From Ginglymostoma cirratum (lineage: Eukaryota), in contig JAHRHZ010000043.1 in assembly GCA_024137785.1 (NCBI GenBank), positions 4,341,302-4,405,301 on the forward strand: a DNA stretch of 64,000 nucleotides, in the 5' to 3' direction. Within the stretch, counting starts at the first letter, position 1. The number at the start of each line of letters is the position of its first letter. This document shows positions 3,410 through 53,422 of the stretch, piece after piece. Under the pieces are notes generated by a model. That model did no database searches, was not told the origin of the DNA, and worked only from the letters and a program-made list of their open reading frames with translations. The position numbers and the translations under genes are program-made.

Positions 3410-4110
3410 CAACAACAACTTATATTTGTGTGGCACTTCAAAAACTAAAATACCCAAAGTCTTTGACAGAAGCATTATCAAAGATAATTAACAACTTCCA
3501 TCATAAGAAGTTACTTTGACCAAAAGTTTAGTCAAGGACAATGTTATGAAATGCATCTACACACAAAGGGTGTAGAGGTTTTTAACTCTAGTCCCAAATG
3601 ACAGCGGATGTTGGATCTGTTAATGACTTTAAATCTAATTATTAAAACTAATAATTTGAAATTAAATATGAGATAGATTTGTTTTGCTAAGGAAAGGTTT
3701 AAGGGATATGGCCCAAAGGCAGGTAGATGGAGTTAGGCCACAGATCAGCTACGATCTCATTGAATGACAGAACAGGCTCGAGGGGCTGAATTAGCCTACT
3801 CCAGTTCCTACTTTCTTGTGTTTAAGGAATTAGGTTTTGGGGTTTTCTTAAACATGGAGATGGACGGAAAGAGGTGGAAAATTTAAGAGAGAAGGGCTTG
3901 GAGACATTCAATTGATTGGAACTGGAGGGGCCACAGATTTGGGAGATTTGTGGGATTACAGAGTTGAAGGTGAGCTAGACCAAGAAGGGGGCTGGAAAGC
4001 AAGGATGAGAATTTCGTAATCCAGGAGTTGCCCGTGCAGGTCATAAGTTAATGGACAAATGAGATTCTTGCAAGTTAGTTCTGAGATGGTGAAACGGTGC
4101 TGGAGTTCTT
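3410..4110 (-). mobile_element. L2-type LINE fragment interrupted by a CR1 tail
   Basis: caacaacaacttatatttgtgtggcac tail at about 3410 and L2-like body at 3830-4110. Confidence 0.5.
3560..3820 (+). mobile_element. CR1 3' end
   Basis: aagggatatgg...gatcagctacgatctcattgaatgacagaacaggctcgaggggctgaattagcctactcc tail. Confidence 0.8.
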
Positions 4111-4329
4111 TAAGTCTCTTGTATTTTTTTGGTCAAATTTCTGTCTTTTAAAAACCTGCTCCAGTTTAACACTAGAATTCCACTGCATGGGCTCATTAAC
4201 TATTTCTAAAGCTGCCACCCTAACACAGCGATATGGCAGTCACTGCTGTTACAAGTCCAGCACTTGAACTAGTTGCCTACAGTGAGTCTTTAAGACTGAT
4301 TTAAGACTGTTGACCTAGATCTGGCAGGC

Positions 4330-4570
4330 CAGACTGACGGTCAGTGACCGTCAATGAGAATTAAGCAGGTGAAGGACTGAGCCACCGTCGGCGTTTCTGC
4401 ATGAGCGCTCCCTGCCAGGAAACAGCGGGGCCAGTTCCAAAGCATCTCCCAGAGAGGCCGCGCTGCAAGCCGGCCCGCTGTCCGCCCGCAGCCCCGCCGA
4501 GCTCCCCGGGCGCAAGCACAGGCGCAACTCGCAGCGCAAATCCGAGGCAAACAAAGAAGCAGCAACGAGG
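4330..4570. promoter_or_regulatory. GC/CpG-rich island downstream of mir-9
   Basis: Dense CpG and GC content (e.g. gccggcccgctgtccgcccgcagccccgccg) against AT-rich, CpG-poor flanks; no repeat signature. Confidence 0.5.
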
Positions 4571-4771
4571 GGCAAAGACAGCAGAAATTTGCAAAAGCAA
4601 ATCTGCTGTGTTGGAAGATGTCACATCAGTTTCCAGAAGAATGGCAGAATCATCCCCAGATTTCTCCAAACCCTTATCACTGATCAGTCTGTACCATACT
4701 GCCGCCGGGTTGGAGGCGAAAGAGCAAATTTTCACTCCAGTTACAAAATTAATCGGAATTTAACAGAATGA

Positions 4772-4992
4772 ATGGATCCTCTTCTCTGCCTTGTTTCGCT
4801 CTCATCAAGCCTCCCTCTACCAAATACCTTATTTTCTGCCTCCCTTTCTGACTCCCTCACTCATTGCTCTCCTCACCTCCACCTATCGATCTCCCTCTTT
4901 TCTACCCCCACCTCACTCATTGCTTCCCCGTCACCCTTTCTCCCTTTTCTTCAATCTCCCTCTCTTTTCTATCCTCATCTCCCTCCACCTTT
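4772..4992. repeat. pyrimidine-rich low-complexity tract
   Basis: Strongly C/T-rich on the plus strand. Confidence 0.7.
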
Positions 4993-5454
4993 ACACTAAT
5001 GCGCTCCTTTTGGGGGCGATTATCAAAGCTCTTGATGATTTCTCCCCCGGTTCTGTCCCTCTTGACAATAAATCTCCAGCCAGCCACCCCCTAAATTTCC
5101 AATAAAATAGTTATGCCCGCGCAAAATAAAAAGACCCTGGTATATTAGCCCAGCTCTAAATTGATTCAGTTGCTAAGGTTTCTCGTCCGCCGCGACTGAA
5201 AATCTCTGGACATTCACCATCTAATCCTTAAAATCAACAGAGAGGCAGCCCAGACTGTTTGGTGTCCCACATTCTCCAGGACAGTCTGTCCAATTTTCAG
5301 ATATCCTATCCGAAATGAGGGAGGGAGAACTCTCAATGACTGGAAAGTCTTCATCCTTATCACTTTTTTCCGATTGAGAGATAACATTTTCATCTTCATT
5401 CCTTCACTCTCTTTCCAGGCGGGGAGGCTGCCGGTGAAACTCGAAGCCGTTTTT

Positions 5455-5476
5455 ACATTCGGTTCTCTAGCTTTAT
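5455..5476 (-). ncRNA. mir-9: miR-9-3p (star arm) variant
   Basis: AUAAAGCUAGAGAACCGAAUGU; seed UAAAGCU intact; pairs with the 5p arm. Confidence 0.93.
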
Positions 5477-5494
5477 GATATGGTTCAACAAATC

Positions 5495-5517
5495 TCATAC
5501 AGCTAGATAACCAAAGA
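5495..5517 (-). ncRNA. mir-9: mature miR-9-5p
   Basis: Plus strand tcatacagctagataaccaaaga is the exact reverse complement of miR-9-5p. Confidence 0.98.
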
Positions 5518-6336
5518 AAAAAACAGCCACACCAAAAAATGAAATCACAGCCGCGGCTCCCAGGAGCAGAAAGAGTGGACAAACTCTTCATCTTCGCTCT
5601 GAAGCTCTCTCTTCAGGAGATTTCTCATCTTCACCCTGAAGACCCTGTGAAACCTTCAAAACTGTACCCCACCCCGACCTTTTGCAATCTTTGCCAATCA
5701 TCAGAAGCTGGCCCCTAAGCCACTGATAACTTTCAATCTTCAACACCTAACTGGGATTTGTTCAGAACACAGAGAAAAAAATATGCCTGAAATCACAGCG
5801 GACCTTTCCAGCATTTTTTTTTTGTTTTCAGTACAGATTCCAGCATTTGCAGTCATTTGCTCCCACTTGGGTATTTGTTCATCTCTACCTAACACTCTCA
5901 AGCCGTGGTCCTGTCCTAATGTTGACCCCCCACCCCGCAACGAACACAAATAAAGTTCACTCTCCCCAGCTTTAGAAACAACAAAAAAGGGTCAACATCT
6001 AAGCGAGCACAAAACAATTTGATTTCTTATTTTAAAAACATTAGTGTAACTTGTTCATTCTGAACGAAAACAAACTAAAACCAAGCCTCAAGTTCCCTCC
6101 TCATGCAATCGCTGACTCTCAGCCAGTTCACAGAGAGAGAAAGAAAATTCAACATGTGAAAAATAAGCAATCGAACTGTTGATCGAGGCCCGGACAGACA
6201 GCAAACCTTGTAGGATATCATTTTAGCCACCGCATATCTAATCAGACGAAATCCCAGCGAAACCTCTGACAACACATAACGCTTGCCTGGTCACCGCTCT
6301 GTTCCTCCGCTCAGTCCTCGATTCGCAGCGCTGGGA

Positions 6337-6375
6337 GATTGGTTATTCAGACAGTGTCCCGGCTGCTATGGCAAC
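6337..6375. promoter_or_regulatory. RFX X-box plus CCAAT box, candidate proximal promoter of pri-miR-9
   Basis: gctgctatggcaac (6362-6375) matches the RFX X-box GTTGCTATGGCAAC at 13/14. ATTGG at 6338-6342 reads AACCAATC on the minus strand. CpG-rich context about 0.85 kb upstream of the hairpin. Confidence 0.5.
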
Positions 6376-7074
6376 ATCATAATAGTTTGCACTGACCCCC
6401 ACCGCCACCCCTACACTCCACCCCCCCACCAACCCAAACCCCCAACAATAAAGCCACAAAACAAACGTTGTATTAAAAGAGTTTGACAAACACTGGCGAT
6501 CCAACACAAACACAACTCGTGTTAAATGTTCTTATCTGTCCAGAGAGGCGATGAGACTGTGAGCGCGTTCCTGTCCTCTAAGTCTGACTGCCCTGGTCTT
6601 GCTGGGTACAAGCCTGACAGTACGTACCCTGTGCTCTGCTGTCCAACCGAGTTCAGGACTCTAGGCCATAGGTCAACCGATCAGGAGAATGCCGATGTCA
6701 TCTTGCAGCTGATGTGCCTATTGATACATAGCTACACCCGACGTCTCCCCTCCCTCTGTCTGCCTCAGTTCCTCCACTTCCTCCTTAACGACCTTTCCTT
6801 GACGTTGAAACTTTCACTCAAGCTTCCCTTTTTAGTCCTCCTTCCCCCTTTCCCACTTCTCGTGGCTCTTGCTGGGTTCTAACTTCAGCAGAGGAAGACT
6901 GACAACTGTCAATGTGTCCATTCTTCAAGCACAACTCCACGCAGCCCACTAACCCGAGTTGCTGACTGGATATTTCACTGTGGTGGGCATCACAGCCCAG
7001 CTCAATGACATTCCAACCTGATGCCCTTGCAATTAGGGATAACTATAATCTTCAGCACAAGGATGGCACCAGAA

Positions 7075-7268
7075 ACAAAACAAAGAACTCCAGAGGCTGG
7101 AAATCTGAGACAAAAGTTGCTGGAGAAACCCAGCAGGTCTGGCAGCATCGGTGGAGAGCAGCTGCTCTGACAAAGGATCACTGGACCCAAAGTGTCAACT
7201 CTCTTTCTGCCTCTACCGATGCTACCAGACCTGCTGAGTTGCTTCAGCTAAATTTCTGTGCTTGTGTT
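7075..7268. mobile_element. palindromic Penelope-derived non-autonomous element
   Basis: Inverted arms cagcaggtctggcagcatcggtggag / ctctaccgatgctaccagacctgctg around a degraded hammerhead core. Confidence 0.75.
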
Positions 7269-10279: not shown

Positions 10280-11170
10280 TACAGCTCAGTTTGATTCAGT
10301 GGTAGCCTTTGAGTCAGAAGATTGTAGGAAAATATGATCAGGAGGTGTTGAAGAGTATTGTGAATAACTACCAGGACTCAAGACATAAATCAGTATTTTC
10401 ACAGAAAATCTTACACAAACACTTGCATATACACAAGCTGAAGGATTTTCAATCATTCTACAATATATCCAGACACATACTACTCTCTTACACATGCCCA
10501 AATACAAAACTATGTAGACTCAATGTCCACAAGCATGAACGTGCATTTAAAACATATTCTTGTACTTGAATAGTGCTATGCACAGATAGATGCAGAAAAA
10601 ATATTGGTTTGAACCCCATCAAAACCTTTCACATAATTTGGGCTGGCATTTCTAGTGCAGTGAAAACAACAAATGCTGGAAGTCACAGCTGGTCAGACAG
10701 CATCCATGGAGACTGAGCAAGCTAACGTTTCATGTCTAGATGACTCTTTGAAGATTCATCTAGACTCAAAACATTAGCTTGTTCTCTCTCCATGGATGCT
10801 GTCTGGCCTGTTGTGATCTCCAGCACTTCTTGTTTCTGGTAGATTCCAGCATCTGCAGTAATTTGTTCCTACTTCTACTGCAGTATTGAGGGGGTGCTGG
10901 CTTGTTGGAGGTGCCATCCTTCAAATGAAACAGTAAGCAGAGACATCTCTTGTTCAGTTGGAAGATCTCTTCACACTATTAGAAAAATAGCAATATATTT
11001 GTCTGGATGACACTCCTCTCTATAAAAAAATCAGTCATTCAGCTAATATTTATTTTTGATAATATGCTGTGGACAAATTGCCAGCAGTTGTAATCAACAT
11101 TGAAACACTTCAAAATGTAGTTGATTGAATGTGAGATGTTTGGTGATGTCCTGAAGTTTTTGTAACGTAT
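10280..11170 (+). mobile_element. fragmented DeuSINE-like SINE
   Basis: tRNA-like head near 10280 (agctcagtt...gtggtagcctttgagtcagaag) and Deu-like core (tgcagtattgagggggtgct...gaggtgccatcctt; gctgtggacaaattg). Confidence 0.5.
10665..10870. mobile_element. palindromic Penelope-derived element (second family)
   Basis: Long inverted repeat: cagacagcatccatggaga...tctagatga / tcatctaga...tctccatggatgctgtctg. Confidence 0.8.
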
Positions 11171-11639
11171 TCTTTGCCCTGAAGTTCCTATATATCAATT
11201 GTTTACTGTGCAAAAATATTCCTGATACTCGCACAAAGGCAAGGAGGTTAGTAGAGTGCCCAAGTGCTCATACTTCAACAATATTGGTCTCTGGTCCATG
11301 ATTATTTTTGTCTTACTTTGTGCTGTAATGAAAGCTCTTGCCTATACACAGGGATTGACTTACAACAGTCTGTGGGCTGAATTTTACATTTTATGGTGAA
11401 GTGAAAGTTTTGCATCAGGTTTTTAGGAGGGGCTCTTGCTGCAAGGCTTCACGAGATTTCTCCCCATGTCTCACCTGCCCTACCTCAATAACTACCCTCC
11501 CTCATGGCATTCTTCTTGCCTGATTCTAGTCCCATGTTACCACATGCCAGTTCCAGAACAACTCACCACTCATTTGTATATCTGCTGAAGGACTGAATAT
11601 GTATTGAGCCTGTGTTAAAGGTGGCTTTAAAAGGAAACT

Positions 11640-11840
11640 GAAAACAAAAGACTGCAGATGGTGGAAATCTGAATCAAAAACAGAAATTACTGGAGAAACT
11701 CAGCAGATCTGTCAATATCTGTGGAGAGAAAACAAAGTTAACATTTAGGGTCTAGTGTTCTTTCTTAAGGACATTGGCTCTACTTTCTCTCCACGGATGC
11801 TGCTAGACCTGCTGAGTTTCTCCAGTAATTTCTGTTTTGG
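11640..11840. mobile_element. palindromic Penelope-derived element
   Basis: cagaaattactggagaaactcagcag ... ctgctgagtttctccagtaatttctg perfect inverted arms. Confidence 0.8.
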
Positions 11841-12419
11841 GGTCCTTAAAAGGCCTTAGTGCACCCTGGTAAACATTGACAATTTGGCATTGTCTCTCAC
11901 CAGCAATAAAATGGCATAGCACCCACAAAGTTACATAACTTATGATGCATAGGTGGCACAACTGACACTCCCTAGCACATGCTACACCATTCTCTTATGT
12001 TAGTTGCTGTTTAACACAGTTGATTCATCCTCAGTTATACCTAATCTAAACACCCTCTCTAAGTCACCACTACTTTGTCCCAATATCCACTGGAGACCCA
12101 CATGGGCTTGTCTTGGTCCTGTACAGCAAGAAAGTGGACAATACTAAAATATGAGCTTCTATTTACAGCCACCAAAAGCGAACACAAACAAAATGAATAG
12201 AGGCTGCAGTTTACCCCAACAATGTTGCCATCATGACCAATGTCTATTTTACGTCCCATGATGGGCTGCTGCAACTGGGGGTCAGTCAAGTCTTATCTGC
12301 CTCATAGCACCCAATGTAGTTCAGCTCTGTCATGGACAAGGAGAGCTTCCTCTTCCCCAGGATCTCCATCTCCTCCTCAGAAGTCTGCTCCCAATCCCTC
12401 AGTTCCTTAGCATCCATCA

Positions 12420-12590
12420 CATTGCCTTGTTGCCTGCTCCAATTGTTCAAAACATAGAATGTCAGGATGATGTGGCACACTGTCTATACTGGAGGGGCCT
12501 GCACACTGCTCCAAGCTGTGGAACTGCATCTTCAGGAGCTCAATTATCTGCTCTACACAGCTCCAGTCACAGCATATGCATTAACTTGGT
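12420..12590 (-). pseudogene. PIF/Harbinger transposase (HARBI1-like DDE nuclease) fossil
   Basis: Frameshifted minus-strand translation VEQIIELLKMQFHSLEQ..G/LQY/VCHIILTFYVLNN resembles the Harbinger C-terminal motif VEQTIGLLKMRFRCLDRSGGALQY...VCHII.ACCVLHN. Confidence 0.72.
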
Positions 12591-14271
12591 AATGGTGCCA
12601 CACCAGCTGAGGGACCAATAAATTACACAAAAAAGTGAGTGCCTGCTGAGCTCCAAACCCCTTCCCTTCCCAAACCCCCATCAATCATTCAATGTTGCAC
12701 TGCATTCAGCAGAGTCCATCATTATATTTACCTGACAGGTAATGCAGCGATATTCCCCACAATCCCAAAACACCTTTGAAAGTTTCACGTGATGGCATGC
12801 TTAGTTCCAGTATTCACTTTTTTTTAAAGCATTGCCACTAATTTATGCATCCTTGAGATGCCAAAGTTAGATTAGCAAGCACCAATGGCATAGTGCCATT
12901 TGCCTTTGACCAAAATTTGAAGCTTAAACACTCTGCATGCAATGCAAATGTATGAAATATACGGGTGACATGTAGCTGCAGGTTGAAAATACATGCTTCA
13001 TGTATTTGTCCCTTCAATGTCCAGCAGACATTGATCCCACGCTATCACCTATGAAAGTGACACTCACCCCCACTCCCCCTCCTCCAACTTCCTGGGCATT
13101 GCCCAAGCTATTTTCCAATTGTCTTTCACATCTAGACAATGGCAAGTGATGGTAGGGAACACAGCTCCTGGTGGCCATGTTAATGTGGGACTCCTCCTGG
13201 TCACCAGCTTATTACCCTCCCACCCCATCACCTTCAAAGCCTCCATGTCCTACCACGCTGTACCTCTACAGCCCATTTACATTTGGCGAAGAGAGGACGT
13301 TTGAAAGCAAAGTTCAAGCTTGTTTGACACATTTGGTAAGACAGGAAACTGAATATTAATGAGATAAATTGTGGTATTAATCAGGCATTTAACAAGCAAT
13401 AATTCTTCATAATTGGCAGCTCACAGTAAGCAACCTGCCACGCCACTCTGCAATTGCAAAAAAATCAGTGAATTGCCCCCGATATCAAGATAGGTCTCAC
13501 TGGACTAGCAAAAATCTGCCATAAATCTCACCACAGCGCACATCATTCAGGCCCCTGGAAGATTCTACCTAAATAATCTAATTTTAAATAGCAGTAGTAC
13601 AAAATAAAGATAAATAAACATACTTATTAGGTATTGGGGAAGGCTAAGAATTTAAATCCAATTCAATTTTCTCAATTATGTTCAGGCTGTCTAATAAAAT
13701 TGGAAACATCTTAATATATTGAATAATTCTTACCCCTTGGCGCCTATTCAGAAAAAGACTATCATGCTCACAAAGATAAACTTGCTAAATCTTCTTTTGG
13801 GGAAGTTAAAGAGTCAAGTTTGTTCTCCACAATGAGGTGTAATACCTATAATTATCATTTTCATGCCCAGTAACGTGACAGCCCTTTGTATTGAGATGTT
13901 TATCTTCAAAAACTTCATTAGCTGTGAAGGGCTTTGAAACACCTTGAGATTGCGCAAGGCACTATAGAAATGCAAGATATTTGCTCCTTTTAATAGTATA
14001 TTATAAATTTTCCTGCCTACTCATCCCAAGCTGAAGATATCCCCAGAAACGATTACAACTATAAAACCAGACAAGGCTGAAGGGGGTCATTTAATCACAT
14101 CCAAGAGAAGGGGAGGAAAACCATCATGGATTATTTTTAGGATGACTTACTGTCCATGATTTAAAGAACACTGCTCTAGTAAGGTATGACATTGTCTTGA
14201 AAAGTAATTTAGCCAGATTTGGTTTGGTTGTTTACAATGAAACTGAAAATTCAAGGCTGCCAACTTGGTGA

Positions 14272-14402
14272 CAGTTCTGAAGTGTCACAGCAGACTCGAA
14301 ACATTAACCCTATTTCTCTCTCCTCAGATGCTGCCAGATCTGCTGAGTTTCTCCAGCATTCTCTGCGATTTGTTTCAGATTTCCAGCAACCACAGGACTT
14401 TG
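14272..14402 (+). mobile_element. Penelope-derived terminal repeat fragment
   Basis: gttctgaag...gactcgaaacattaac...cagatgctgccagatctgctgagtttctccagca. Confidence 0.75.
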
Positions 14403-14569
14403 CTTCTTGTCCCGATTAGCTGTGATACAGATTTAGATGCGGCAAATCTCGGGATATCATTGTCAACACCAGTTATCTGGCTCCCAAGTTTATCCAACAA
14501 GATTTCCAAAATCACCTCTGGTGGCCTCTCAATGTCTGCATTTAGCACAATGTGTATTATCCTGGAATC

Positions 14570-15210
14570 ACAGGTTTTTTTCCCAATGCAGAAGGAGGCC
14601 ATTTGGCTCATCATATCTGGACTGGAACTCTGATGTGTATTATGCCTTAGTGCCTTAGTGCCACTCTCCTGCCTTTTCCCAATAGCCTTGCACATTGTTC
14701 CTATTCAAATAACCCTACTGAATGCCTCAACTGAAATTACTTCCATTAGACTTGTAGACAGTGGATTCTAAACCTAACCACTCACTGTGTGAAACAGTTT
14801 TTTTCTCACATTGCATTTACCACTTGCAAGTTATCTTAAATGTGCCCTTTTTATTCATAGTCCTTTTATGAGTGGCAATGCTTTCTCCTTGTCTACTCTG
14901 TCCACACCATGATTTTGAAAATTTCTGTCAAACCTCCTCTTTGCTTTCTCCCCTCCAAGAAAAACATTTCCAATTTCACCAACCTATCCACATCCCTGGA
15001 ATCATACTCCGAAACATCTTCTGTGTTTTCTTCAAGGCAGTCATATCTCTGCTGAAGTGTGGTGCCCAGAATTGTATATAATATAATAGGAGGTCTAAAT
15101 AGGGCTCTACACATGTTCAGTATAACCACCTTGCTGTTGTATTGTATCCTCCCATTAGTAAAGCTTAGGATACTGTATGCTTTATTAACTGCTCCCTCCA
15201 ATTTTCTAAC
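14570..15210 (-). mobile_element. CR1 3' fragment with RT C-terminal remnant
   Basis: ORF 14893-15246 gives AVNKAYSILSFTNGRIQYNSKVVILNMCRALFRP (CR1 RT C-terminus); CR1 tail near 14580. Confidence 0.8.
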
Positions 15211-16062
15211 TCCAGACATATGGAAACTTATATTTGAAGGGCACACATTCTGATGGGTTTTAAAAGCATAGTTTTCAATATTCTGAAAAAGCCGATTTTG
15301 CTAACTGCATTCATTTACCATTAAGATCAACCATAGACTTTGGCACAAGCTTCCAGGGATGTAAACTCAGTTTGCTAGAAGCACCTATCAATAAAAACTG
15401 ACTTGCTGACAAGAAAGAAAGAGCATGGAAGAAAGAGAGAGTAAGAAAGGAAAGGAAAAAAGAGAAAAAAGAAACAAAGAAATGCAGGCTTTAGGACCAT
15501 ATATTTGTACACTGCCCTTTAACTTCCTAACTTAATGCAATTCTTCTCTTTCTTCCTTTAATAACCCACTTTCTATTCAAATCCCATCCTTTTGACTCAG
15601 ATTTTTTGTATCAATTCCTAACATCCCTCTGCCATAGATTTTTTTATCTGCTCTCCTCTATATCTCCATTGAGAAGGACCTTGGAATGTTGTTTCTGTTA
15701 AGGGTGATGTATAACAGTAACTTAACCATCTCAATGTTGAAGTTGTAGCCAAATTAAATCAGATAAAAGCAGATTCTCACTGCCTGCTTGTGACATCAGT
15801 GCAGCAAAGGAAATGCATAGCTTCACTTCTGCCTCTTGAAATTCTTAAACGTTTGTTGTCCTGAAAGTATTAACTCATATTATGCAACAGTGTGACCTGA
15901 AAATCAGTCAGTATCCCTTGTGCTCTTTCTTTACACCGTGAGGCCGGATATCGATGACTAGATCACTGTTTGACTTTGAGCAACGTGGTATTTTTTGCAT
16001 CAGCCCAATTATGTTCTGACCACCTATCCTCAGAGGTATGATCTAGCAGAAGCTGCAGTGGG

Positions 16063-16400
16063 GAGAGCTAGAATACAAGAGCAGAGATGTACTGCTGAGG
16101 CTGTATAAGGTTCTGGTCAGACTGCATTTGGAATCTTGTGAGCAGTTTTGGGCCTCCTATCTAAGGAAGGATATGCTGACATTGGAAGGTTCCAGAGGAG
16201 ATTTACAAGAATGATCCAAGGGATGAAGGTCTTGTCATTTGAGAAGAGATTGAGGATTCTGGGTCTGTACTCGAGGGAGTTTAGAAGGATGAGGAGGAAA
16301 TCTCATTGAAACTTACAGAATACCAAGTGGCATGGATAGAATGGACATGGAACGATGTTTCCACTAATAGGAGAAACTGAGACCTGAAGAAACAGCTTCA
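16063..16400 (+). mobile_element. CR1 RT C-terminal fragment
   Basis: Translates LEYKSRDVLLRLYKVLVRLHLESCEQFWASYLRKD. Confidence 0.85.
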
Positions 16401-16414
16401 GAGAAAAGAGATAA

Positions 16415-16522
16415 AAGGTACTGCAGATGCTGGAGAATCCGAGATAACAAGCATGGGGCTGGATGAACACAGCAGGTCAAGCAGCATCATAGGAGCAGGA
16501 AAACTTGACGTTTCAGGTCCCA
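16415..16522 (-). mobile_element. Penelope-like element terminal fragment
   Basis: actgcagatgctggagaatccgagataacaag...gctggatgaacacagcagg; same family as 41070-41320. Confidence 0.75.
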
Positions 16523-17244
16523 GTCTGTCGAATAGTGCAAACATCGTTTTCATGTCCACCTTATCTAGGCCACTCGGTATTCTGTAAGTTTCAATGAGAT
16601 TCTGTCCACATCCTTCTAAACCTCGCTGAGTACAGACCCAGGGACAGGTTGAAAAATTTGGTCTTCACAAGGGAAATGACACCGACTGTTGTGAAATGTA
16701 ATCGTCAAGTCATGGAACGGAAGACAACAGCATATAGAAGGAACTCCAAATTGGGTCAGCAGTTAACATTCTTGCCTCTTGAATGTTAAGGGTTCACGTC
16801 CAACACACAGACTCAAGCATAAAGCCTAGGCTGACACTCCTCTGTGCAATCCAGCGCAGGGAGGTCTTAATGTCATGGGTTCCCAAGGTTCACCATCATT
16901 CTCACAATTTCAGTGAGCATTTTAAAGGAGAACAGAGTAAAATAACATGCTCAATGTCTCATCAAGGTGTTCCAACAGTGTGTTTTCCAATGAAGGCAAG
17001 AAATAGGTGTTAGGTTGTATAGCTAGGACCTTTGAATATGAAACAAAGAACACAACACTTAGACTTATGTAGCTCAGGTGTGAGCCCACTTGAAGAATTG
17101 ATTGGTTTTCAGTCCCAACACAGTGATGGACATTCATACGTGAGAGAAAGTGGAGAGTCAGCTGACTAACATGATAAATTAAGCTTTCAAGTCTTCTTTT
17201 TACAAGTTTTAATTATGAAGATGAGCTTTGAAGAATTTCCAGGA

Positions 17245-17640
17245 AGATGGTGGCATCGAGGTTATGTTGCTGGAGTAATCATTTTTATGTCTGGGCTAAT
17301 GATCAGAGAGATAAGTTTAAATCTAAGCTTGGAAGTTGGAGAATTTAAAGTCTATTAATTAACTGAATCTAGAACAAGAAGTTAGTGTTGGTAATTGAGA
17401 CCATGAAATTAGTTGATTGCCATAAAAGCCCAACTAATTATTTATGCCCATCATGGAAGGAAATCTGCTGTCCTTAACCAGTCTGGCCTATGAGTGATTA
17501 CAGACCCAGAGATACATAACTGACCATCATCTGCTCTCTGAAATGGTCTAGACTGTCAAAGGCAGCTCAACATCAATTTCTTAAGGGCAATAATGGGAAC
17601 GTCAATGGCATATTGGTCTTGTCAGGATTGACCTAGACTT
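17245..17640 (+). mobile_element. tRNA-derived SINE (family of 23159-23503), diverged
   Basis: ggaaggaaatctgctgtccttaaccagtctggcctatgagtgattacagaccca core. Confidence 0.65.
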
Positions 17641-17904
17641 GTCAGGGAATGGCTAATGCAGACTTCAGAAAGAATTTGGCAAAATACATCAGTAGCAACA
17701 AGGGACAGTGGTGAGGCAGAAAGTGGATGCCTATTTTGTACTATCCCTCACTTTCATTTCCAGTGGCTTTGTGAAGACAAAAATTGATTGCTGTGTGAAT
17801 GATGCTGACTCGCCATGAGCATCTACTGGCAAAGACCAGTTTCACCTTTGATAAGCTTACATTTTCTGAAACAATGGCTCAGATCAGTTGGATGGACAAG
17901 GACA

Positions 17905-18435
17905 ATAAGAAATGGGAGAAAGAGTTGGGCCACAGACTCACTCGGCCCTGTTCCTTCATTCAGTAAGGTCACAGCTGGCCTTATACCTTATTCCTACACT
18001 TTTCTTCCCTAGACTCATAATTCCTTGATTCACTTCATGTTCATAAACCTATCAATCTATTTCTTTAATATACTTAGTGAATGAACCTTCCCTGCTTTTT
18101 GTTGCAGACAGTTTCAAGGATTTGCAAATTTCTGAGTGAAGAAATTTCTTTTCATCTCAGGACCTAAATAGCCCGACAGTGTATCCCATGGCTGCTTGTT
18201 CTTGGCTCTCCAGCGAGAGGAAAACAGCCACTCTGCATCGACTCTATCAAGTCCACTGAGAATTTTATATATGTCAATGAGATCACCTCTCATTTTCTGA
18301 ACGTCCACAAAACAAAGGCCCATTCGACTCAATCTTTTCTCATAGGAGAGCCCTTTCATCCCAGGTCTCAATTGAATTGTCGTTGCACTGTCTCTAAGGC
18401 AAGTATATCTTTCCTTGGGTTCAGAAACCAAAAAT
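17905..18435 (-). mobile_element. CR1 3' fragment
   Basis: ORF 18114-18602 contains PGMKGLSYEKRLSRMGL...MRGDLIDIYKILSGLDRVDAE...RNFFTQ. Confidence 0.88.
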
Positions 18436-19179
18436 CTCTTATAGATTATTTCAGGTAGATAGAAATGGTGGGATGAGAAAGTGATCGTGCAAAAATCCGT
18501 AATCAGAGAGTTAGTTTCGTTGTCATGGAGTATTTCGTTTTGCAGATAGTCATCACCTTCTGGCATACAGGCCAAAACAGGCAGTGGATAAAAAGTCACC
18601 ATGCTCCTTTAGAAGGAACATTGTTTCCTGTCTTTCTCAGGAGACAGTGTGGTTAGGGAGGAGGTCAATAGTTTATGCTGGATGCATGGTTACCTGGATA
18701 CTGTGGGCCTGGTGGTTTGCCTTTGCCCCTTTTGTAAATTTACATTAACAATCTGTAAGTCTTTGGGGAAGTAAAAGAGAGTAAAAACAAAACTAAGCCC
18801 AATTCCAATGAAACCTGCAGGAAATTCCTTCTCGAGAACATAAGACAATCAACTAACCTGCCAGTGACAGGGGGTTACCTATGACATTGGTTTAAAAAAC
18901 ACCCCTATTGGAAGAAATATCTGTATGGGACCAAAAAATGGCATTTCAGAAATTGAGACAACACCAAATAATAACAAAATTCATTTCTTATTTCATTCCT
19001 GACATCCTTTGTGGGCATGCTTGCTGAAGTGTCTCGCCACACCATCACATATTTACTACCATTTATATTAGATTATACCCTCACAGTGTACCATTTTTTG
19101 GCTAGAATTGTCTCCTTCCAAGAGAGCTGGATGAATATACATCATTTTGGGATCGGTTTCTCTATTCTTTCAGGATTTC

Positions 19180-19822
19180 ATCACATGAAAACAGAAGGAG
19201 GCCATTCAGCTCCTCAGGCCTAGACTTTCATGCAACCAGATCTTGGCTGCTCTGTCTGTCAACTCAATTTATTCATCTTTAGAACATAGAACATAGCATG
19301 TAGAACACAGACACAGAATGTACAGCACAGGAACAGGCCCTTCAGCCCACCATGTCAGTGCTGACCATAATGCCATTCTAAACTAATCCCATCTGCTTGC
19401 ACATGATCTGTATCCCTGTATTCCCTTCCTGTTCACGTGCCTTTCCACATACTCTTAAAATATTGCTATCATCTCTGCTTCTACCTCCTCCCCCTGGCAG
19501 TGCGATCCAAGTACCTTCAACCCTCTGTGTAAAAAAATTGCCTCGTACATCTCCTTTAAACCTTCCCGCTCTCACTTTAAACCTATACCCCAACCTAAGA
19601 ATAAGACTCTGACTATCCACCCTATTCTTGTCTCTCATAATTTTACATACTTCAGCCAGGTTGTCCTTCAGCCTCTGGTGCTCTAATGAAAACAATGCAT
19701 GTTTGTCCAACCTCTCCTTATAGCTAATACACTCCAATATAGGCAATGCCCTGGTAAACCACTTTTGTACCCTCTCCAAAAACTCCAATTCCTTCCTATA
19801 GCGTTGGGACCAGAACGCACAA
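19180..19822 (-). mobile_element. CR1 3' fragments
   Basis: ORF 19378-19860 contains LERVQKWFTRALP...SYKERLDK...DVRGNFFTQRV; tail tagaacatagaaca. Confidence 0.88.
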
Positions 19823-20599
19823 TTCTCCCCCAACAGAAATCTGTCAATCTCACTCTTCAAAGCTTTAACTGTCCCCCAGTATCCAAAGCCTTTTTGCCCT
19901 ATTGAATAATTTTAAGCAGCTCAAGTGAATTTCTCATCCGTAAAGGTTAGATTTACACAATCTGTCCTTATGATGTAACCCTTTAAACCCTGTGTCAGTT
20001 TAGTGAATCAGTGTTGCCCCTTCCCCAGGGCCAAAATATCCTTCCCAAGATTTAATGCCAAAACAGTGTTCTATAAGTTTATGCCTGAGGCACCTTCTCT
20101 CCAAGTAAATTGTAGCACAGGTGTGCAATCTCATTTGTCAATTTAGCATCCCTCTTTTGTATTTTCTCTCTTGAGGTATGGCGCTCAGAGCTGTACAAAA
20201 TACTCCAGGTGGTGATGGACCAATGCTTTGTACAAACTAATTATCATTTCCTGGGACTTGGTACACTATCCCTCAAGCAAAATAAAATGTATAAGACAAA
20301 TAAGAAAGAAAACGTGCAAATCTGAAATGAAATCAGAATACTTCCAGCATTTTCAGGATTTATTTTGTCCTGTATAAAATGCTGTCAGGTTTAATCAACG
20401 GTCTAATTATAGGGTGTTTACAGAGACATTCCAGATTCCTCTCTGTATCATTTCCTGGTCCTCCCACCACTGCGCTCAGAAGTGTTAACCTAGTTTATGT
20501 GCTCAAGTCCCTCAAGTGAGATACAAATGCACAACCTACACGTTCAGAAAGGAAGAATGCAACCCATCAAGTCATGGCTGAGTTTTTTCTACACGGTCT

Positions 20600-21290
20600 T
20601 GTTTTCTATTCCCTGGTTTGAGAATTCTGTTTCTCTGTACTAAATGAAATCTTCCACTTTAGAGTCCAATCTCCCAAAATGACTGGATCTTTCTTTGAAC
20701 ATCTGCTTGTTCCTTATTATTTATGACACCCACACAGTTTAGTATCATCAACAAACTAGAAGAATTTATTAGCGATCCTTTAACTCTATCTCTCTCTCTC
20801 TACATCACACACTGATGCTCGCAATGAGTAAATCACTGTGGAATTCTGTAGTCCCCTCTCTCCGCATAGATCCAGCTCCCCAATACAATCTCTGACTCAA
20901 ACGTTTAATTAATCACTCCAAAAGATTTCCATCAGTTAACTAAGACTCTATTGTTTCTTTGAGCAGTCTTCTATGTGATACTGCAATAAAGGTTTTTCTA
21001 AAATGTAGTCTTATCATATCTACTGGGTTTTTCTGGTCAACTAACCATTATAATGCCAAGGAACTCAAGTAGACTTATCAAACAAGATCTACCTCATACA
21101 GAAACCCATGCTTGTCATGTTGTGTAGTTATGTCCCAATCACTTAATATTCTCCTTTCAAAAAGATTTCTGCTATTTCATCCTGTCCTAATAACAGTTTC
21201 ACAGATCTATCATTTTTTTGGATTATTCTTATGCCTTTCTTTGTGACCTGGCATTACATTCCCTTCTTTCTAGTTCCTTAGTGCAACTCA
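20600..21290 (-). mobile_element. old CR1 RT fragment
   Basis: Degenerate FADD-region remnant (tttagtatcatcaacaaact) and upstream RT motif remnants. Confidence 0.55.
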
Positions 21291-21334
21291 GTCATTCATG
21301 AATAGAACTCTTCTCAAGAGCATTACAACAACAG

Positions 21335-21535
21335 CAATAATTGCTGGAGAAACCCAGCAGGTCTGGCAGCATTTGTAGAGAGAAAGCAGATGTTTTGAGT
21401 CCAGTGACCTTCTTCAGAACTGGATTCAAAAAGTTTGCTCTGCTTTCTCTTCATAGATGCTGCAAGACCTGCTGAGTTTCTCAAGCATTTTCCTTTTTAG
21501 TTTTAGTTTTCCAGCATCTACAGTTTTTTGTTTTA
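21335..21535. mobile_element. palindromic Penelope-derived element
   Basis: cagcaggtctggcagcatttgt ... atagatgctgcaagacctgctg inverted arms; central gtgaccttcttcagaac. Confidence 0.78.
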
Positions 21536-22599
21536 TTTTAGTGTATTACTTCAAATTTTCTTTGCTTATATTGTTGCAAGGTGCATAGGATTATTAGAAA
21601 TAGATTATTCAGGAGTTTGAGCTTATTCTGCTGTCAAGTTAGATCATGGCCAATGTGCTTATTACTGTATCTACCACCTTCATTCTCTGTCTGCTTTTTT
21701 CTCCCGCCTTTGTTTCCAAAGGTTAGACAATTGGCTTCCATTAGATTGATCCACTGTCATGGTGATGACAGTGCAGTGATGGTTTTCCATTGTCTTCTGT
21801 AGGATAACTAAGAAACTCTGTCACTCTTACTGTCTGCCATCTAATGTATTGGAAGGTTTTACAAGTTGACAATCAACCTGCTTGGTTACCTTCAAAGCAC
21901 AGCTTCCATGACCAATGGGCCCTGGTGTAGGATGTAAAGATGTTTCTACTTTGTCACAGGCCACTTTGGCATTGGTTTCACCTTCCTTAATATTCTTACT
22001 TCACACAAAGAATCGTAGACCCATTACGTTTCTGCACAGTATAAAATAAATTAAGCTCATTTTGTCAGTGCTGGCTCTTTGTAGAACTATCCAATTAATG
22101 TCACACCCCTGCTGTTTTCCCATAATTTTAATGTTTCTTTAATTTTGAACTTTTATTTAATTATTCTCCTTCAGGAATTAATTCAATTCTCTTTGAATCT
22201 ACTCCACACCCAGCATCCAGGCAGTAAATTCCAGGTCACTGCAATTTGTGCAAGAAAATTGTTTCCTGTGTTGCCTCTAGCTCTTTTGCTGATCACCCTC
22301 ATTCACTGCCTTCTGATAAATATTTTCTAATAAACTTGCTCAGAGGTGGTATTAAACATCTCTGGAACAGGTAGAACTCAAATCCAGCCCTTCTAGTTTA
22401 GAGGAAGGGACATTACCACTGCGCCACAAAAGCCCCTTCTGTCATCTGATACTATTCTTGCTACAACTGGGTATAGATTTTCATTACATACTTAAGCAAA
22501 ACCTTCAATTACCTTGTATGTCTCTAACAAATCTTCTCCTAACCTTCTTTGCGCAAAGGAAAACAAGCCCAACATCTCTAATCTTTCAGGAAATAATGG

Positions 22600-22890
22600 A
22601 ATTTAAAATATTTTCTTAAGAAAATGTCTGGAATTGAAGGCCAGTCTCAATGATGGCGGCCATTAAACAAATATCAATTGCCATAAAAACTTTTCTGGTT
22701 CACTAATATCCTTTAGGGAAGAGATTCTGCTTCATTACCTGGTCTGGCCTACATGTCAATCCACATCGAAGCCCTAGGGTTCTCTTAACAATGTTGTGAA
22801 ATGCCCAAGCAAGCCACTCAGATCAAGGGCAATTAGATCACCAAAAAATACTGGCCTGGTCAATAACACTCAGATCCCACGAAAGAGCAA
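22600..22890 (+). mobile_element. tRNA-derived SINE fragment
   Basis: ctggttcactaatatcctttagggaag...acctggtctggcctacatgt core. Confidence 0.7.
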
Positions 22891-23158
22891 AGTACTTAAG
22901 TTAAGTCATGGAGCCAGGTACCATTTTCTACTCTCCAAGGACTTAGCATCCTTCCACAATCCTGGTATATAGAGTTGGTAGCAGTACTCCAGGTGACTTC
23001 ACATTGGTGTCTCAGAAAATACATTGTTCTCTATTAATACAATGAAGAAACACTTACACTTTCTTTATACAACCTTCTCAACTTGCCTTGCATCTTCAAT
23101 AAATGCATACACCTCCATCACCTTCTCTCTGAATCCCTTGAATAACTGTGCCACTCAG

Positions 23159-23503
23159 GGGAAGCAATAGCCTTGTAGCATGATCGCTAAACAATTAATC
23201 CAGAAACTCAGCTGATATTCTGAGGGCCTGGGTTGAAATCCTGCCATGGCAGAGGATGGAATTTGAATTCAGCAAAAGATATCTGGATGACCATGAAATC
23301 ATTGTCAACTGTTGTGTAAAAACCAATCTGGCTCACTAATGTGCTCCAGGGAAGGAAATCTGCCAACATCACCTGGCCTCGCTTACATGTGACTCTAGAC
23401 CCACAGCAATGTGGTTGACTCTAACTACCCTCTGGGCAATTAGGGATGGGTAATGAATTCTAGCTGACCCAGTGATGCCCACATCCTGTGAATGAATAAA
23501 AAA
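23159..23503 (+). mobile_element. near full-length tRNA-derived SINE inserted in an older CR1
   Basis: B-box-like gggttgaaatcc, core ggaaggaaatctgcc...acatgtgactctagacccacagcaatgtggttgactc, tail atcctgtgaatgaataaaaaa. Confidence 0.8.
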
Positions 23504-23509: not shown

Positions 23510-24070
23510 TTTCTTCTCCTTATTCATTCTATCAAAATATAACACTCCATGTGTTTACCCATTTTACCAGCCTCCCTCTGTCTTCCTGATGTCTGTTCCT
23601 CCTCATTGCTTACTACTTTTCCAAGTTTTGCAATATCTGTGAACTTTGAAATGATGCTCCTATTGTATCTGAAGTCCAAGCCATGACTAAAGACCAAATA
23701 GAAGAGTAGTTTTAATACTGACTCTTCTGATATTAATGGTACATATTCTTCCTATCTGCAAAACAACCCTCACCAAAACTCTCCATTTTCTGTCCTTTTC
23801 CCAATTTGATAACCTTGCATTCACTGCCTCTTTAATCTAAAGGGCTTTAAAACAAGTCTATTGTGATATTTGGTGAAATACGTATTGAAAGTCCATATAC
23901 ACAGCATCAGCTGCATTATCCTCATTCACCCCTCTACAATACTGCATCAAAGACCTCAATCAAATGAGCCAAACATCGTTTGCTTTGAATAAAATCGGTA
24001 CTGACTTTCATTTAGGACCCCAGTTACATTTCCAAATGCCAAGTAACTCTGTCCTGAATGATTATCTCAA
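23510..24070 (-). mobile_element. old CR1 RT fragment
   Basis: ccaagttttgcaatatctgtgaactt (FADD-like) and gaaagtccatatacacagcatc (DAVYMDFQ). Confidence 0.65.
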
Positions 24071-24924
24071 ATGTCTCACTCCAATTGCTCACTTTGACTC
24101 TATGTATATTTAAATATTACAATTATGTTTGGTTCTTATATAAATAGACAACACAGAGGTACGTAATAAAATCACATTCCGTCTCCATGTATATCATACA
24201 TGGGCAGCTATAAATTTACCTCGGGCGCGGACAGAAAAACTGAAGATATGGGATGCGCAGCTTGATGAACACAATATTTGATTCACTGTAATTGATGCTG
24301 AACCACAGATCCTCCGTATAACGGGAAGTTGATCTCATATTGCCATCCCACACTAACGTCAACCCCAGAGTCTCAGCAAGAATATATAGTATAAGGATTT
24401 TTTTCTCTCTCTCTCTGATTCACACATGCATCCACAAATAAACATAGTGACATGCACAGACACATATACAGATACTTAAATACAGGCAGGCAGCCACATC
24501 TTTCTGTAAACCATTGCAATGAATCTCTGTCATATACATGGTCCACGCAGCCTACAAGAATGTTGTCTATAGCACATTCAGAGTTTATATTACGAGATGC
24601 TGAGGTCCACGTGGTAAAAGAAAACAAAGCGGATAACTGCTTTGCTAGTCGGTTGTTTGGTGTGGGGCGCGGGGCGGGCAATGGTGATGGGGGTGGAATT
24701 GGGTTGGGATGGGGAGGATGTGGTGTATAAGGTGGAGGGGAAAGACGTGGCTTATCGCAGAAGGGGGGCGTTCAGTTTATTTTGAAGCCATGAGTTCCAT
24801 GCATTGTACATCTCACCCGGAATTAATACACAACAACGGCAACGTGCAAAGAAACGACGGGATTAACTGCATACCTGGGCTCTTGCCTGTTTAATCGGAA
24901 CCTGCTTCGCCGGAGTGTGAAGAG

Positions 24925-24968
24925 TGTGTGTGAACATGAACGCGTGTGTGTGTGTATGTGTGTGTGTG
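24925..24968. repeat. (GT)n microsatellite, imperfect
   Basis: gtgtgtgtgtgtatgtgtgtgtgtg. Confidence 0.8.
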
Positions 24969-27900
24969 GAAGGGTAGTGGTATTCTTTGAAAGTATATTT
25001 CTTGGATTTGAAGGCGGGGTTAGACTCTATAGTTATTCACGACAGCTTGTCAGGATCGAAATTGTGCCTGGATCGTTCTGTAGTTACTTAGACATATCTG
25101 ACACTGAGGCCAGAAACACTCCGAAATGCCCCCACCTCACATTCCCCATCGCCTTCACCCCAGCCCGCTAGAGGGAGGCCAAATATTGAAAGATACAGAC
25201 CTCCGCTCATCTTCACTCCAAGCCTTGACATCGGTTTATAAATGTTAAAAAGGACTGCTACTTTGTTTTACACATCCATTATTTGGCCTCTCTTAGATGG
25301 GTCTATGAAAAACCCAAGTACAACAGGATGAACTGAAAAGAATCAAAAATAACCACACAGTGAAAGGACTGAAATGTTAGCATGGATCGTGTTTACCGAG
25401 TCTGACCTTCAGCAAACCCACGGGGGCAAGGGGTGTTCGGTGTGTGTATATATACAGGGCACAACACTAAATTCTCTGCACCTCCTTCACTCTACAGCTG
25501 AATTTGAAACTTAAACCATCTGATTCACCTAGTCTGCGTCTGTCGGCGGAATGTAACCAAATATTTCATCTAATTGCATTTATTCATATCACCGTCACTG
25601 TTCCTAGATACATAATAATTGTAAATATAGCGACCACGTTCAGACTCATTTCCATCCCTTTCCTCGTACAGTCACGGGACAGATCTTTGTCTTCTCTGTC
25701 TCCATTACCTCCCCCCACCCCGGACCACCCGATATATACATATATAAAAAAACCTCCAGTCATTAATTCATCTTTCTGCGTACATGTGGAATATATGCAG
25801 AATGTATTGAGTGATATTGCCAAAACAGCGACAGTGATATGTCTAACTCTCTCGCGTTTAGAAAGTTTGCGTTATTCTGCACATTTTTTAATTCATTCCA
25901 GTTAATGCATTGTTTCAATATACATCGCACTTAAGTCTACACTATGTTGTACCTATGGTGACAGAGTTTCTATTGTTTAAAAATACAACACTTTTTTCTC
26001 TGGTATATGCTTCGGTACAATCTGTCTTTGCCCTATAAAGCCAGTGATATTGCATTATTTTACTTTTATGTTCCATTCTATGATTATATAACATTACAAC
26101 GATATATCTGTCTCGGTCCTCGTTACTGGCGAAAAGCCCTTTATATGTGCCAACTCCACGAAATGGTATATTTATGTAATACCAGTATTAGCACACACCC
26201 ACATATAAGCTGCAGTAATGTACAAACCATGGGGTGGTGAGAAACAGGAAACAGTCCTAGCCCAGCATAACATCAAATTGACATGCTCATCCAGACACAA
26301 TCCTTTCCCAAAAAAATTTCAAAGTTGTGAACTTTAAACATATCAGAGATTGCGGTTTATTGGGAGAGGCGGTGGGGTTGAGAAACTTGATGTCTTATTT
26401 TTTAACAGCTGCAAGGACAACGTTTCGTGAAACCGTGTTCGGTGGATGAGCCCAGGAGAGTTTAGTTGTTTGATGTACATTAACCCCAGTCAATGGATTA
26501 GGAAGGGTGCATGTTTCGGGGAGTTTTGGTCAATGAAATGAATGGACGTGAAAGGAAACGTATGAATTAACCTAAGGACATAGATACAGCACAGCATTCC
26601 TGGGGTAAGATTAGGAACGACAAACAGAGAGAGAGAGAGAAAGATTTGATAGAGTTAATTTTAGTGACTATGGTCTAATTGAGGACTTTATATCAAGTAT
26701 AGATTTTGCATTTTGTACTAGTAACGCCCTTTTGTATGTTTTAAGGGACATAGCCTTGATTGTACTGATGAAGCATGTGACGTTTGAATGAAGGATTTAT
26801 TTGAAAGCGATATTCTTTTCTAGAGAGCATATATCAGTGTTGAATACAAGCCTGGTTCACAATACAACCCAGCAGACACGATTCACATCGACGCACCTTT
26901 CAGAGGCAGAGCTGGCAGAATAAGCAGAGAGATGTGCTTAGCAATGTCACATCAGCCCCGGGTACTTTGCTACAGACCTAACATTTCAATGTTCTCGGTC
27001 TCTCTCAGCACTGGCAGGTTGCGTGCTGCTGAGCAGACAGGCCGCCTTTCTCCAACCTTTATCGCTACGAACGGGAATGAATATTTCATTGCATCCATTG
27101 CCCAACGTGTCCAGTTCAAATGGAGCTGCTTCCACAGGGCCCGCTCCTTCCTCCCTTTATCCTTTGCCAGGCGATGAATTTGCGGAGAATTGCGATTCAT
27201 CTGAAAACTCCCGGCTTGTCCAGGCCTACAAGCTGCCTTCTCTCGCAGTCCAATCCTCCGGTGTTAGATCTCTCCTTATCCCACCTCCTCTCCCCTTTTC
27301 CCGTTTCCCCCGTTTACCAGACTAAACGCCAATTTCCCTACGATCATTTCTACGTTAGAAACGTGTGTTTAGCCATAAGGACATAAGGAACTAATTCCGC
27401 CAATTCCCGGTATCCAGCTCCGAGCAACAATCCTCCATTCCCATTAACAGGGGGAAAAAAATCCAAGTTAATGACACTGTCACTGAAGTGATGGAGTGGA
27501 ATGAAACCCGGGTGAGAGCGGGTGTAACTATATTTAGGCTCACTTGGGTCGCATTGTAAAACATTTCCAAAAAACCACCGTGCCAGTTCTGTTGTACAAT
27601 GTGTGTGATTTTTTGAAAAGGTCGCCAATAAATTTAACGGAGCTATTATCACTGAGTACAGTATTCAGCAACATAGCGACAACGGCTGGTTCCAGCGTTA
27701 CATTCCAGTATTATATTCCTATTCCATTTGTGTTTCTCCTTTCTCTCTTCCCCCCACCCACACCCCAATCTCCAGATCTCCCTCACTGACTTCGCTCTAC
27801 ACCCACCCCCAAATTTTTCCCAAGTATGTAAATTTGGGGAAATTCCCATCCATCGGCAGTAGATTCAGGGACAGCTATTTATGAGTGAATACACACTGGA

Positions 27901-30900: not shown

Positions 30901-31065
30901 GACAACAGTAAAACAAGATTAAATTTGAAAAAAAAATGCAGGACCGGAAATTTGGATACGTGAATCTATCTGTTCTTACTCTCATTAGCTTTGAATTTCG
31001 TGCAATGTCACTTTTTAAAGAAATACATAAAATCTTCTCTTGCAATCATCTCTCATTATTTTCAA

Positions 31066-31195
31066 GACTTCACCTGACGGAGGGGCAACGCCCAGAAAGC
31101 TTATGATTTTAAATAAACCTGTTGGACTATAACCAGGTGTCGTCTGATTTCTGGCCTTGTCCACCCCAGTCTAACACCAGCATCTCCACATCATA
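31066..31195 (+). mobile_element. Penelope-like terminal repeat with degenerate hammerhead
   Basis: cacctgacggaggggcaacgcccagaaagctt...aaataaacctgttggactataacc...ccaccccagtctaacaccagcatctcca. Confidence 0.8.
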
Positions 31196-33409: not shown

Positions 33410-33510
33410 CACATAGAGAGATAGAGAGAAAGAGTAAGTAGATAGGGAGCTAGCTGGATAGATAGACTAAATAATAGACACACATAGATAGACAGATAGA
33501 TAGATAGATA
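33410..33510. repeat. degenerate (GATA/GAGA)n tract
   Basis: atagatagacagatagatagatagata. Confidence 0.7.
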
Positions 33511-34694
33511 CGGTGCTACAGCTCGTGTGAAACGAAATATACACAGGGAGAGAGGAGCGAAATGATGGAGAAATGCAGTTATATCTAAAAGGAATACAGA
33601 ACCAATATTGATGGATAGAAAAGGTGATATGTCGGAAAGAAAAAAAGATAAACATGCAGAGGACGAGACAGTAAACCAGAGAACTGATAGAGATAGTAGG
33701 GTGCATGCAGATTGAAAGGAACATACTGCGGCGATGTGAACAGAGTGATAATATTCTCTAGATAACTTTGACACCATCTTATAATGCAATCTCAGCTACG
33801 TCCTGCTATAAGAGTATCCACTGTCCTGATATCAAAGCCACATTCACCCGACAATCGATGTTTATGGACGATTTGAAACGAGATTGGGATCTTGGTATTT
33901 TGAAGGCTTTCGACATCGAAAAGGCATTGCATCATCGAAAAAGGACAACGTGTCTTTTACACTTTCCTTCTATCATTGAGAAACGACCCCAGAATAAAGT
34001 TCTTATTCTGTGAATGGTTACAGCGTCAAAACTGATTTTTAATAAACACAGCTTCTTCCTTTAATATCGGACTGAACTGTCAAAAGTTTAATATCTCTGG
34101 AGCTAGGGTACTTCTGCTCCAGATTTCCTCACCTTCCTGGCGTTTTATTTAGCAGAAAGCAACGAATTTATCTAACTCTGGTGGTTTTAATTTAAAAAAT
34201 ACATCCTGAATTCCGAACTCCTCAGCTTGGGTTACTTTAAATTCAGTTCGAGCTCGTTTCCGGCTTGTGGGTGCTCACGTAAATGACTGTTTGGGGAGGG
34301 GGTGGGGGCAGGGTGCGGCGGTGTCTCTATGACTGAAAATCTCACTCTCAACATCACGACAAGATATGTCTGTGACCGAAAGGAGAAACAGCGACGTGAG
34401 CCGGACAGAAATGCAGCAGAGATGGCTAATAAACTAAAAGCGAACTGCAGGATTTACAAATAGAAAGTGCTGGAGAAACTCAGCAGGCCTGGCAGCATCT
34501 GTGGAGACAGTGACCCTTCTTCAGAACTAGCCTGGAAACAGGACTTCACTTTCAGAGGTGTCTCGCTCACTTCCAGTCTGTCCTCCGCCCCTGCGTTGTC
34601 ACAGAAATTGGAATCTACAACCCATTTCACCCTCTCCTACCCGGAACCACCAGTCCTCAGTTTACAACCTGCAGAAGTGCACCTCTCACACAAG

Positions 34695-34866
34695 CCTGCA
34701 TTTAACTGTGGCTGATCCACCTAACCTACACACCTTTGGACTGTGGGAGGAAGCCCACGCAGACACAGGAAGAATGTGTAAACTCCACACAGACAGTTAT
34801 CCGAGGGTGGAATCGAACCTGGGTCCCTGATGCTTTGAGGCGGCAGTGCTAACCACCGTGTCACCC
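34695..34866 (-). mobile_element. HE1-type SINE 5' part (tRNA head plus V-core)
   Basis: ggaatcgaacctgggtccctg (B box on minus), cagtgctaaccaccgtgtcacc head, cctttggactgtgggagg core. Confidence 0.88.
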
Positions 34867-34884
34867 GACGTCATAGCGAGACTG

Positions 34885-41000: not shown

Positions 41001-41067
41001 TCTTCCCAAGGAAACAATTCGTTCTTCATTTCAATCAGAGATGTCTGATGTCTGATTGGTGTCATTT

Positions 41068-53384: not shown

Positions 53385-53422
53385 TGTATAAATATATATA
53401 TTATATATATATGTATATATAT
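53385..53422. repeat. (AT)n tract
   Basis: atatatatattatatatatatgtatatatata. Confidence 0.8.

Follow-up and report, generated by a model that had tools for sequence, protein, structure and literature searches.

A probable Mir-9-P4 orthologue in a shark genome carries a variant 3p arm known from teleosts and chicken

Introduction

Chordate linkage group C carries four MEF and four Mir-9 ohnologues, and the Mir-9 genes P1 to P4 correspond to its four subgenomes (PMC8789304). The MirGeneDB-based tables that accompany that work (SuppFile3) list Mir-9-P4 as a curated gene of elephant shark, coelacanth, and zebrafish, with no copy in human or gar. The sets given by the same source are P1, P2, and P4 for elephant shark, P1 to P4 for coelacanth, and P1 to P3 for human and gar, and zebrafish has seven Mir-9 genes, including two P4 copies. 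Likewise, chicken gga-mir-9-1 groups with zebrafish mir-9-4 (PMC5824543), and a review describes the miR-9-4/miR-9b class as lost in eutherians (PMC3834235). For elephant shark, three mir-9 loci had been listed by 2014; all are intergenic, and they show enrichment in eye and brain (PMC3964593).

Here we describe a miR-9 locus from Ginglymostoma cirratum. The DNA analysed is a stretch of 64,000 nucleotides (assembly GCA_024137785.1, contig JAHRHZ010000043.1, positions 4,341,302 to 4,405,301 of the forward strand), referred to below as the window, and all coordinates are those of the window. The locus has the same 5p product and hairpin architecture as human MIR9-1, MIR9-2, and MIR9-3 (Mir-9-P1 to P3), which are the other three ohnologues. 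An original prediction, made from the sequence, had proposed that this is a miR-9 gene of the fourth paralogue.

Results

An intact miR-9 hairpin gene on the minus strand

The minus-strand locus is an intact, ordinary miR-9 hairpin gene, encoding a brain microRNA. The Rfam mir-9 model (RF00237) matches positions 5447-5526 of the minus strand over its full length (model positions 1-78) with a score of 70.6 bits (E 9e-12; gathering score 58.6 bits), and this is the sole gathering-level Rfam match in the 64-kb window. Seven further matches to other families are all far under their gathering scores, several of them on hairpin repeats, and no tRNA genes were found in the window. The 23-nt miR-9-5p sequence has one match in the window at up to three mismatches, located at 5495-5517 on the minus strand, and none of 100 shuffles gives any match. 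These results bear out the predicted miR-9 locus with its exact miR-9-5p and well-formed hairpin. The suggestion that the locus may be unannotated is of minor importance, because a default Rfam scan picks the locus up.

The predicted structure is also unusually stable for its composition. Positions 5434-5540 (107 nt) fold with -34.2 kcal/mol (z -5.29) and the 64-nt precursor with -21.5 kcal/mol (z -4.49), and in each case none of 200 shuffles is equally stable. However, 42 of 2556 sliding windows of 107 nt attain an energy of -34.2, and thus the identity call depends on sequence rather than on stability alone. A hairpin read from the plus strand was considered and rejected because both its Rfam score (56.1 bits, under the RF00237 cut-off of 58.6) and its fold (-24.7) are weaker.

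Hairpin anatomy and processing signals

The features of the hairpin are as follows, with the basis for each in parentheses.

5443..5530, minus strand: pri-miRNA hairpin, basal junction to basal junction (Rfam match, fold, and pair probabilities)
5454..5517, minus strand: predicted pre-miRNA of 64 nt with a 2-nt 3' overhang (fold; ends inferred from homologous reads)
5495..5517, minus strand: canonical miR-9-5p of 22-23 nt, seed CUUUGGU (identical to the printed lumpfish and salmon 5p arms)
5476..5495, minus strand: terminal loop region (sequence and fold)
5454..5475, minus strand: 22-nt miR-9-3p variant (U-start register) with the unchanged seed AAAGCUA (homologous arms)
5465, minus strand: diagnostic G at 3p position 11 (position 12 in the A-start register), mismatched to 5p A10 (pair probabilities)
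5457, minus strand: diagnostic U at 3p position 19 (position 20 in the A-start register), facing 5p C2 in a 3x3 loop (fold)
5530..5531, minus strand: basal UG at -14/-13 (motif check)
5433..5436, minus strand: weak CNNC at +18 from the 3' cut (motif check)

The lower stem extends 13 nt beneath the 5' Drosha cut and 11 nt beneath the 3' cut, which is the standard geometry, and its positions -2 to -11 are paired with probabilities of 0.77-0.99. Together with the basal UG and the CNNC, a cue of low power, this stem supplies the expected Microprocessor signals, and the basal stem and CNNC that had been reported for the locus are indeed present. The CNNC starts 18 nt past the 3p end at 5454 and is weak evidence because nine CNNC matches occur within those 40 nt. 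At the apical end, UGU begins 5 nt into the segment that follows 5p nucleotide 23; there is no UGUG, and this cue is optional.

A symmetric 3x3 internal loop lies at the Drosha site. In human pri-miR-9-1, an asymmetric loop drives an alternative Drosha cut (PMC6369706), whereas the symmetric loop seen here leads us to predict no strong alternative cut of that kind.

In the register of the sequenced homologues, the 5p arm (5517-5496) and the 3p arm (5475-5454) make up a 22/22 duplex, each end of which has a 2-nt overhang. The duplex pairs at 17 of 20 positions (15 Watson-Crick and 2 wobble), where the canonical miRNA criterion asks for at least 16 pairs. In agreement with the A-G mismatch proposed opposite 5p position 10, A10 (5508) faces the G at 5465 and is unpaired with a probability of 1.00. 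The canonical 3p arm, as found in lumpfish rows and in the Rfam consensus, pairs at this position, whereas the arm in the window does not.

Both 3p changes had been placed at positions 12 and 20. The changes themselves are real when compared with the canonical arm of five of the seven lumpfish loci, but the numbering has to be shifted: sequenced variant arms from chicken, lumpfish, salmon, and carp start one base later than the A-start form, which moves the two differences to 3p positions 11 and 19. Both fall outside the seed.

The variant 3p arm in other vertebrates

The same 3p arm is present among printed or sequenced small RNAs of several species. The 22-nt lumpfish clu-miR-9b-3p is identical to window positions 5475-5454 (PMC8773022), as is a salmon read that spans the 22-nt arm (PMC8631080). 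Chicken gga-miR-9-3p, as printed, is 21 nt long and equals positions 5475-5455 (PMC13570354), and a read of 23 nt from crucian carp brain equals the arm in its first 22 nt (PMC6048248). In the accessible portion of the small-RNA data of the latter study (seven files), the variant appears in carp rows only, and the shark rows of the table that includes the carp variant do not list it.

Lumpfish served as a control for how the arm types are distributed among the miR-9 loci of one genome. The 11 miR-9 rows of the published table collapse to seven loci (PMC8773022 Table S3), five of which have the canonical 3p arm; two carry the central G, and one of the seven carries both changes. The locus with both changes, clu-mir-9b (contig jcf7180000028261), has 22-nt 5p and 3p arms identical to those of the window. 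Its loop is 3 nt shorter than the window loop and otherwise different, except that its last 5 nt are as in the window in a by-eye comparison, which is a weak likeness. Teleosts have, beside the full-variant copy, a second G-bearing miR-9 copy without the U change, and a flounder precursor likewise has the G-only form of the arm (PMC3144956). The two G-bearing loci among the seven of lumpfish fit the two P4 copies of teleosts.

One canonical-arm locus of lumpfish has its loop start in common with a G-bearing locus (PMC8773022), so that the presence of the central G may not by itself be fully diagnostic. The window loop was compared by eye with all seven lumpfish loci, and among these loci loop similarity did not follow arm type cleanly.

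Genomic surroundings of the hairpin

The hairpin is located within a region that has retained CpG dinucleotides. Two features of this region are relevant to transcription.

4001..7000, no strand assigned: CpG-retaining block around the hairpin (observed/expected 0.52-0.62, versus 0.03-0.30 in flanking bins)
6337..6375, minus strand: X-box-like (RFX) site followed by a CCAAT box 20 nt on (each motif at chance level alone)

The 4001-7000 block is a candidate proximal promoter region. Lying 0.8 kb upstream of the hairpin, the X-box-like site and the CCAAT box would be candidate proximal promoter elements on the basis of their motifs. A comparable arrangement is found in zebrafish, where an intronic promoter is situated 1.1 kb upstream of mir-9-5 (PMC5909433), and we liken the CpG block to this promoter. 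A search of the window for a REST/RE1 site gave five matches at three mismatches, none of them near the hairpin, and no exact spaced matches, and we claim no such site.

CpG retention extends to two larger blocks. At 24001-36000 and 41001-61000, CpG observed/expected is 0.52-0.95 per kb with an ordinary G+C content (~41%), and it is 0.03-0.36 elsewhere. Bins above 0.4 number 35 of 64 and fall in three runs, and none of 10000 shuffles is equally clustered. The two blocks upstream of miR-9 look like germline-unmethylated developmental domains that may hold candidate host promoters or enhancers. The intervals 24-32 kb and 52-60 kb have no self-repeats. A short G+C-rich segment at 4361-4760 (~70% in its core), 0.7 kb downstream of the hairpin, is probably a CpG island; it has open frames on both strands and no Pfam match. 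On the plus strand, which is antisense to the hairpin, a strong splice-acceptor-like site is located at 5394-5419, 25 nt beyond the hairpin base. When 1533 candidates are ordered by pyrimidine count, it is among the first 7, and it may reflect either chance or an antisense exon.

The remainder of the window contains several repeat classes. Dispersed short hairpin-forming repeats resembling MITEs are present at 7072-7265, 10664-10867, 11634-11838, 14272-14395, 21324-21539, 40765-41196, 47002-47229, and 61845-61960, and they account for the window's most stable folds as well as for spurious weak Rfam miRNA matches. By appearance, the minus-strand segments 18114-18608, 19378-19911, and 44671-44991 are decayed LINE 3' ends, which we take to be CR1-type, and one LINE-like ORF has nine protein matches at 53-69% identity. 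In appearance, the LINE and hairpin-repeat relics are in keeping with a shark genome. A local duplication of 160 nt (45838-45997 and 46593-46752; 93% identical, 755 nt apart) and a degenerate, GT-rich tandem array whose periods range from 16 to 30 nt (50897-51151) were also observed.

Probable assignment to Mir-9-P4 and alternative readings

We conclude that the locus is very probably the Mir-9-P4 orthologue (miR-9-4/miR-9b class), the 2-beta ohnologue of the two vertebrate genome duplications. The window locus carries the variant 3p arm, with the central G and the U near the 3' end, that we take as the mark of Mir-9-P4. The variant chicken 3p arm presumably derives from gga-mir-9-1. Our use of the arm as a P4 marker draws in part on the gene sets and groupings of PMC8789304 and PMC5824543. 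By family and, judging from the 3p arm, by paralogue class, the window locus thus corresponds to the Mir-9-P4 of MirGeneDB. The claim of a fourth paralogue that is absent from human holds, given that the arm is the chicken and teleost variant, that P4 is absent from human, and that the class is lost in eutherians. Its label, "avian miR-9-4-3p," agrees in sequence with the chicken arm but is not confirmed as a name: the arm is printed as gga-miR-9-3p, and the chicken gene that groups with zebrafish mir-9-4 is called gga-mir-9-1. The available passages of PMC10735318, PMC9641661, and PMC2926783 contain nothing bearing on the paralogue. Mir-9-P4 is already a curated gene, and the window adds one orthologue to it.

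A further reading is compatible with the P4 explanation and refines it by giving the 3p changes a function. The A-G mismatch, which sets 5p position 10 against 3p position 11, coincides with the Argonaute slicing position whichever of the two strands is loaded. If functional, it would block Argonaute-2 slicing of the partner strand both ways and shift unwinding or 3p accumulation, so that P4 would act as a specialised supplier of miR-9-3p. We consider this rather unlikely. The mismatch does interrupt a stretch (5p 3 to 17) that is fully paired apart from it, but slicing of the canonical miR-9 passenger is itself presumed. Both changes are identical in the window, teleosts, and chicken (PMC13570354, PMC8773022, PMC8631080), but conservation is just as strong for the canonical arm, and in one teleost copy the G is present without the U (PMC8773022). 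Although the variant 3p arm ranks in the top 100 small RNAs of anoxic carp brain, with a normalised mean of 11,627 to 23,341 (PMC6048248), the lumpfish variant locus is 5p-dominant, as are all 11 lumpfish miR-9 rows (PMC8773022). Drosha cutting and arm ratio vary among the human pri-miR-9 paralogues, but these already yield 21-43% 3p reads (PMC6369706). A broader form of this proposal, which we judge to be unlikely, is that the two off-seed changes were kept from cartilaginous fishes to birds for function. The P4 duplex would then be unsliceable both ways and loading of miR-9-3p would be tuned, making P4 a biogenesis-specialised ohnologue whose loss altered the 5p:3p balance of placental mammals.

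The gene neighbourhood bears on whether the locus might instead be P1, P2, or P3. It had been proposed that the locus is linked to MEF2B and TMEM161A, and the window was inspected for coding content. When the 235 minus-strand ORFs of at least 50 aa were all scanned against Pfam at E 0.01, three had weak matches (E 0.0026-0.0091), all under the curated cut-offs, and all 237 plus-strand ORFs of at least 50 aa gave no match at E 0.001. Hence none of the 472 ORFs of this length in the 64-kb window reaches a Pfam cut-off, a result that we count against the P4 call. Short exons could still be present, because the scan covered ORFs from 50 aa upwards, the window has a further 860 ORFs of 30-49 aa, and Pfam covers the C-terminal exons of MEF2 poorly. 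Of nine MEF2 motifs sought in the window, seven had no match and two loose ones gave eight unconvincing matches, with no MADS/MEF2 motif among them. In the literature searched, no paper states a MEF2B/TMEM161A linkage of miR-9-4, what turned up being concerned with the MEF2C locus, and the accessible part of PMC3048864 makes no mention of miR-9. Indirect support for such a linkage may come from linkage group C, with its four MEF and four Mir-9 ohnologues, and from the neighbourhood of TMEM161B, MIR9-2, and MEF2C, where the host region of MIR9-2, long and free of other genes, separates MEF2C from TMEM161B (PMC5909433).

The long gene-free, CpG-retaining region upstream of the hairpin resembles this MIR9-2 host region, and loop similarity in lumpfish does not track arm type cleanly (PMC8773022). 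Both observations would suit a P1, P2, or P3 locus that gained the same two 3p changes via convergence or gene conversion. However, the same two changes would have had to arise independently in an arm that does not vary across five of seven lumpfish loci, and P4 is known to persist in a cartilaginous fish (PMC8789304), which leaves this alternative very unlikely. That the locus is a decaying or silent copy, as the loss of P4 from human and gar (PMC8789304) might suggest, is extremely improbable given that both arms match functional orthologues exactly (PMC8773022, PMC8631080), the Microprocessor geometry is intact, and the locus is within a CpG-retaining block.

Discussion

With the locus read as Mir-9-P4, its expression can be outlined. 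A minus-strand Pol II primary transcript would probably start in the CpG-retaining region just upstream or at a distal host promoter. Drosha/DGCR8 would cut at 5517 and 5454; the geometry and the basal UG are seen in the sequence, and the cut sites are predicted from homologous reads. Dicer would then release the computed 22/22 duplex with 2-nt overhangs. Loading is expected to be 5p-dominant by analogy with lumpfish, where each of the 11 miR-9 rows, including the variant, shows this bias. As family knowledge suggests, the canonical 5p arm would join the neural pool of miR-9, which represses targets with seed matches; HES1 and FOXG1 are validated examples (PMC6369706). The variant 3p arm would serve mainly as a paralogue tag, and its changes would loosen the centre of the duplex. 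Since the usual 3p seed is kept, the two changes should leave seed targeting intact.

Given that this is a shark genome, the P4 arm changes would be older than the split between cartilaginous and bony fishes. Since the 5p product is the same for all miR-9 genes, the variant 3p arm is a natural tag for the output of one paralogue in ordinary small-RNA data. As one more orthologue of a curated gene, the locus is modest in weight, and its importance would grow only if slicing or arm loading turns out to be altered by the central mismatch.
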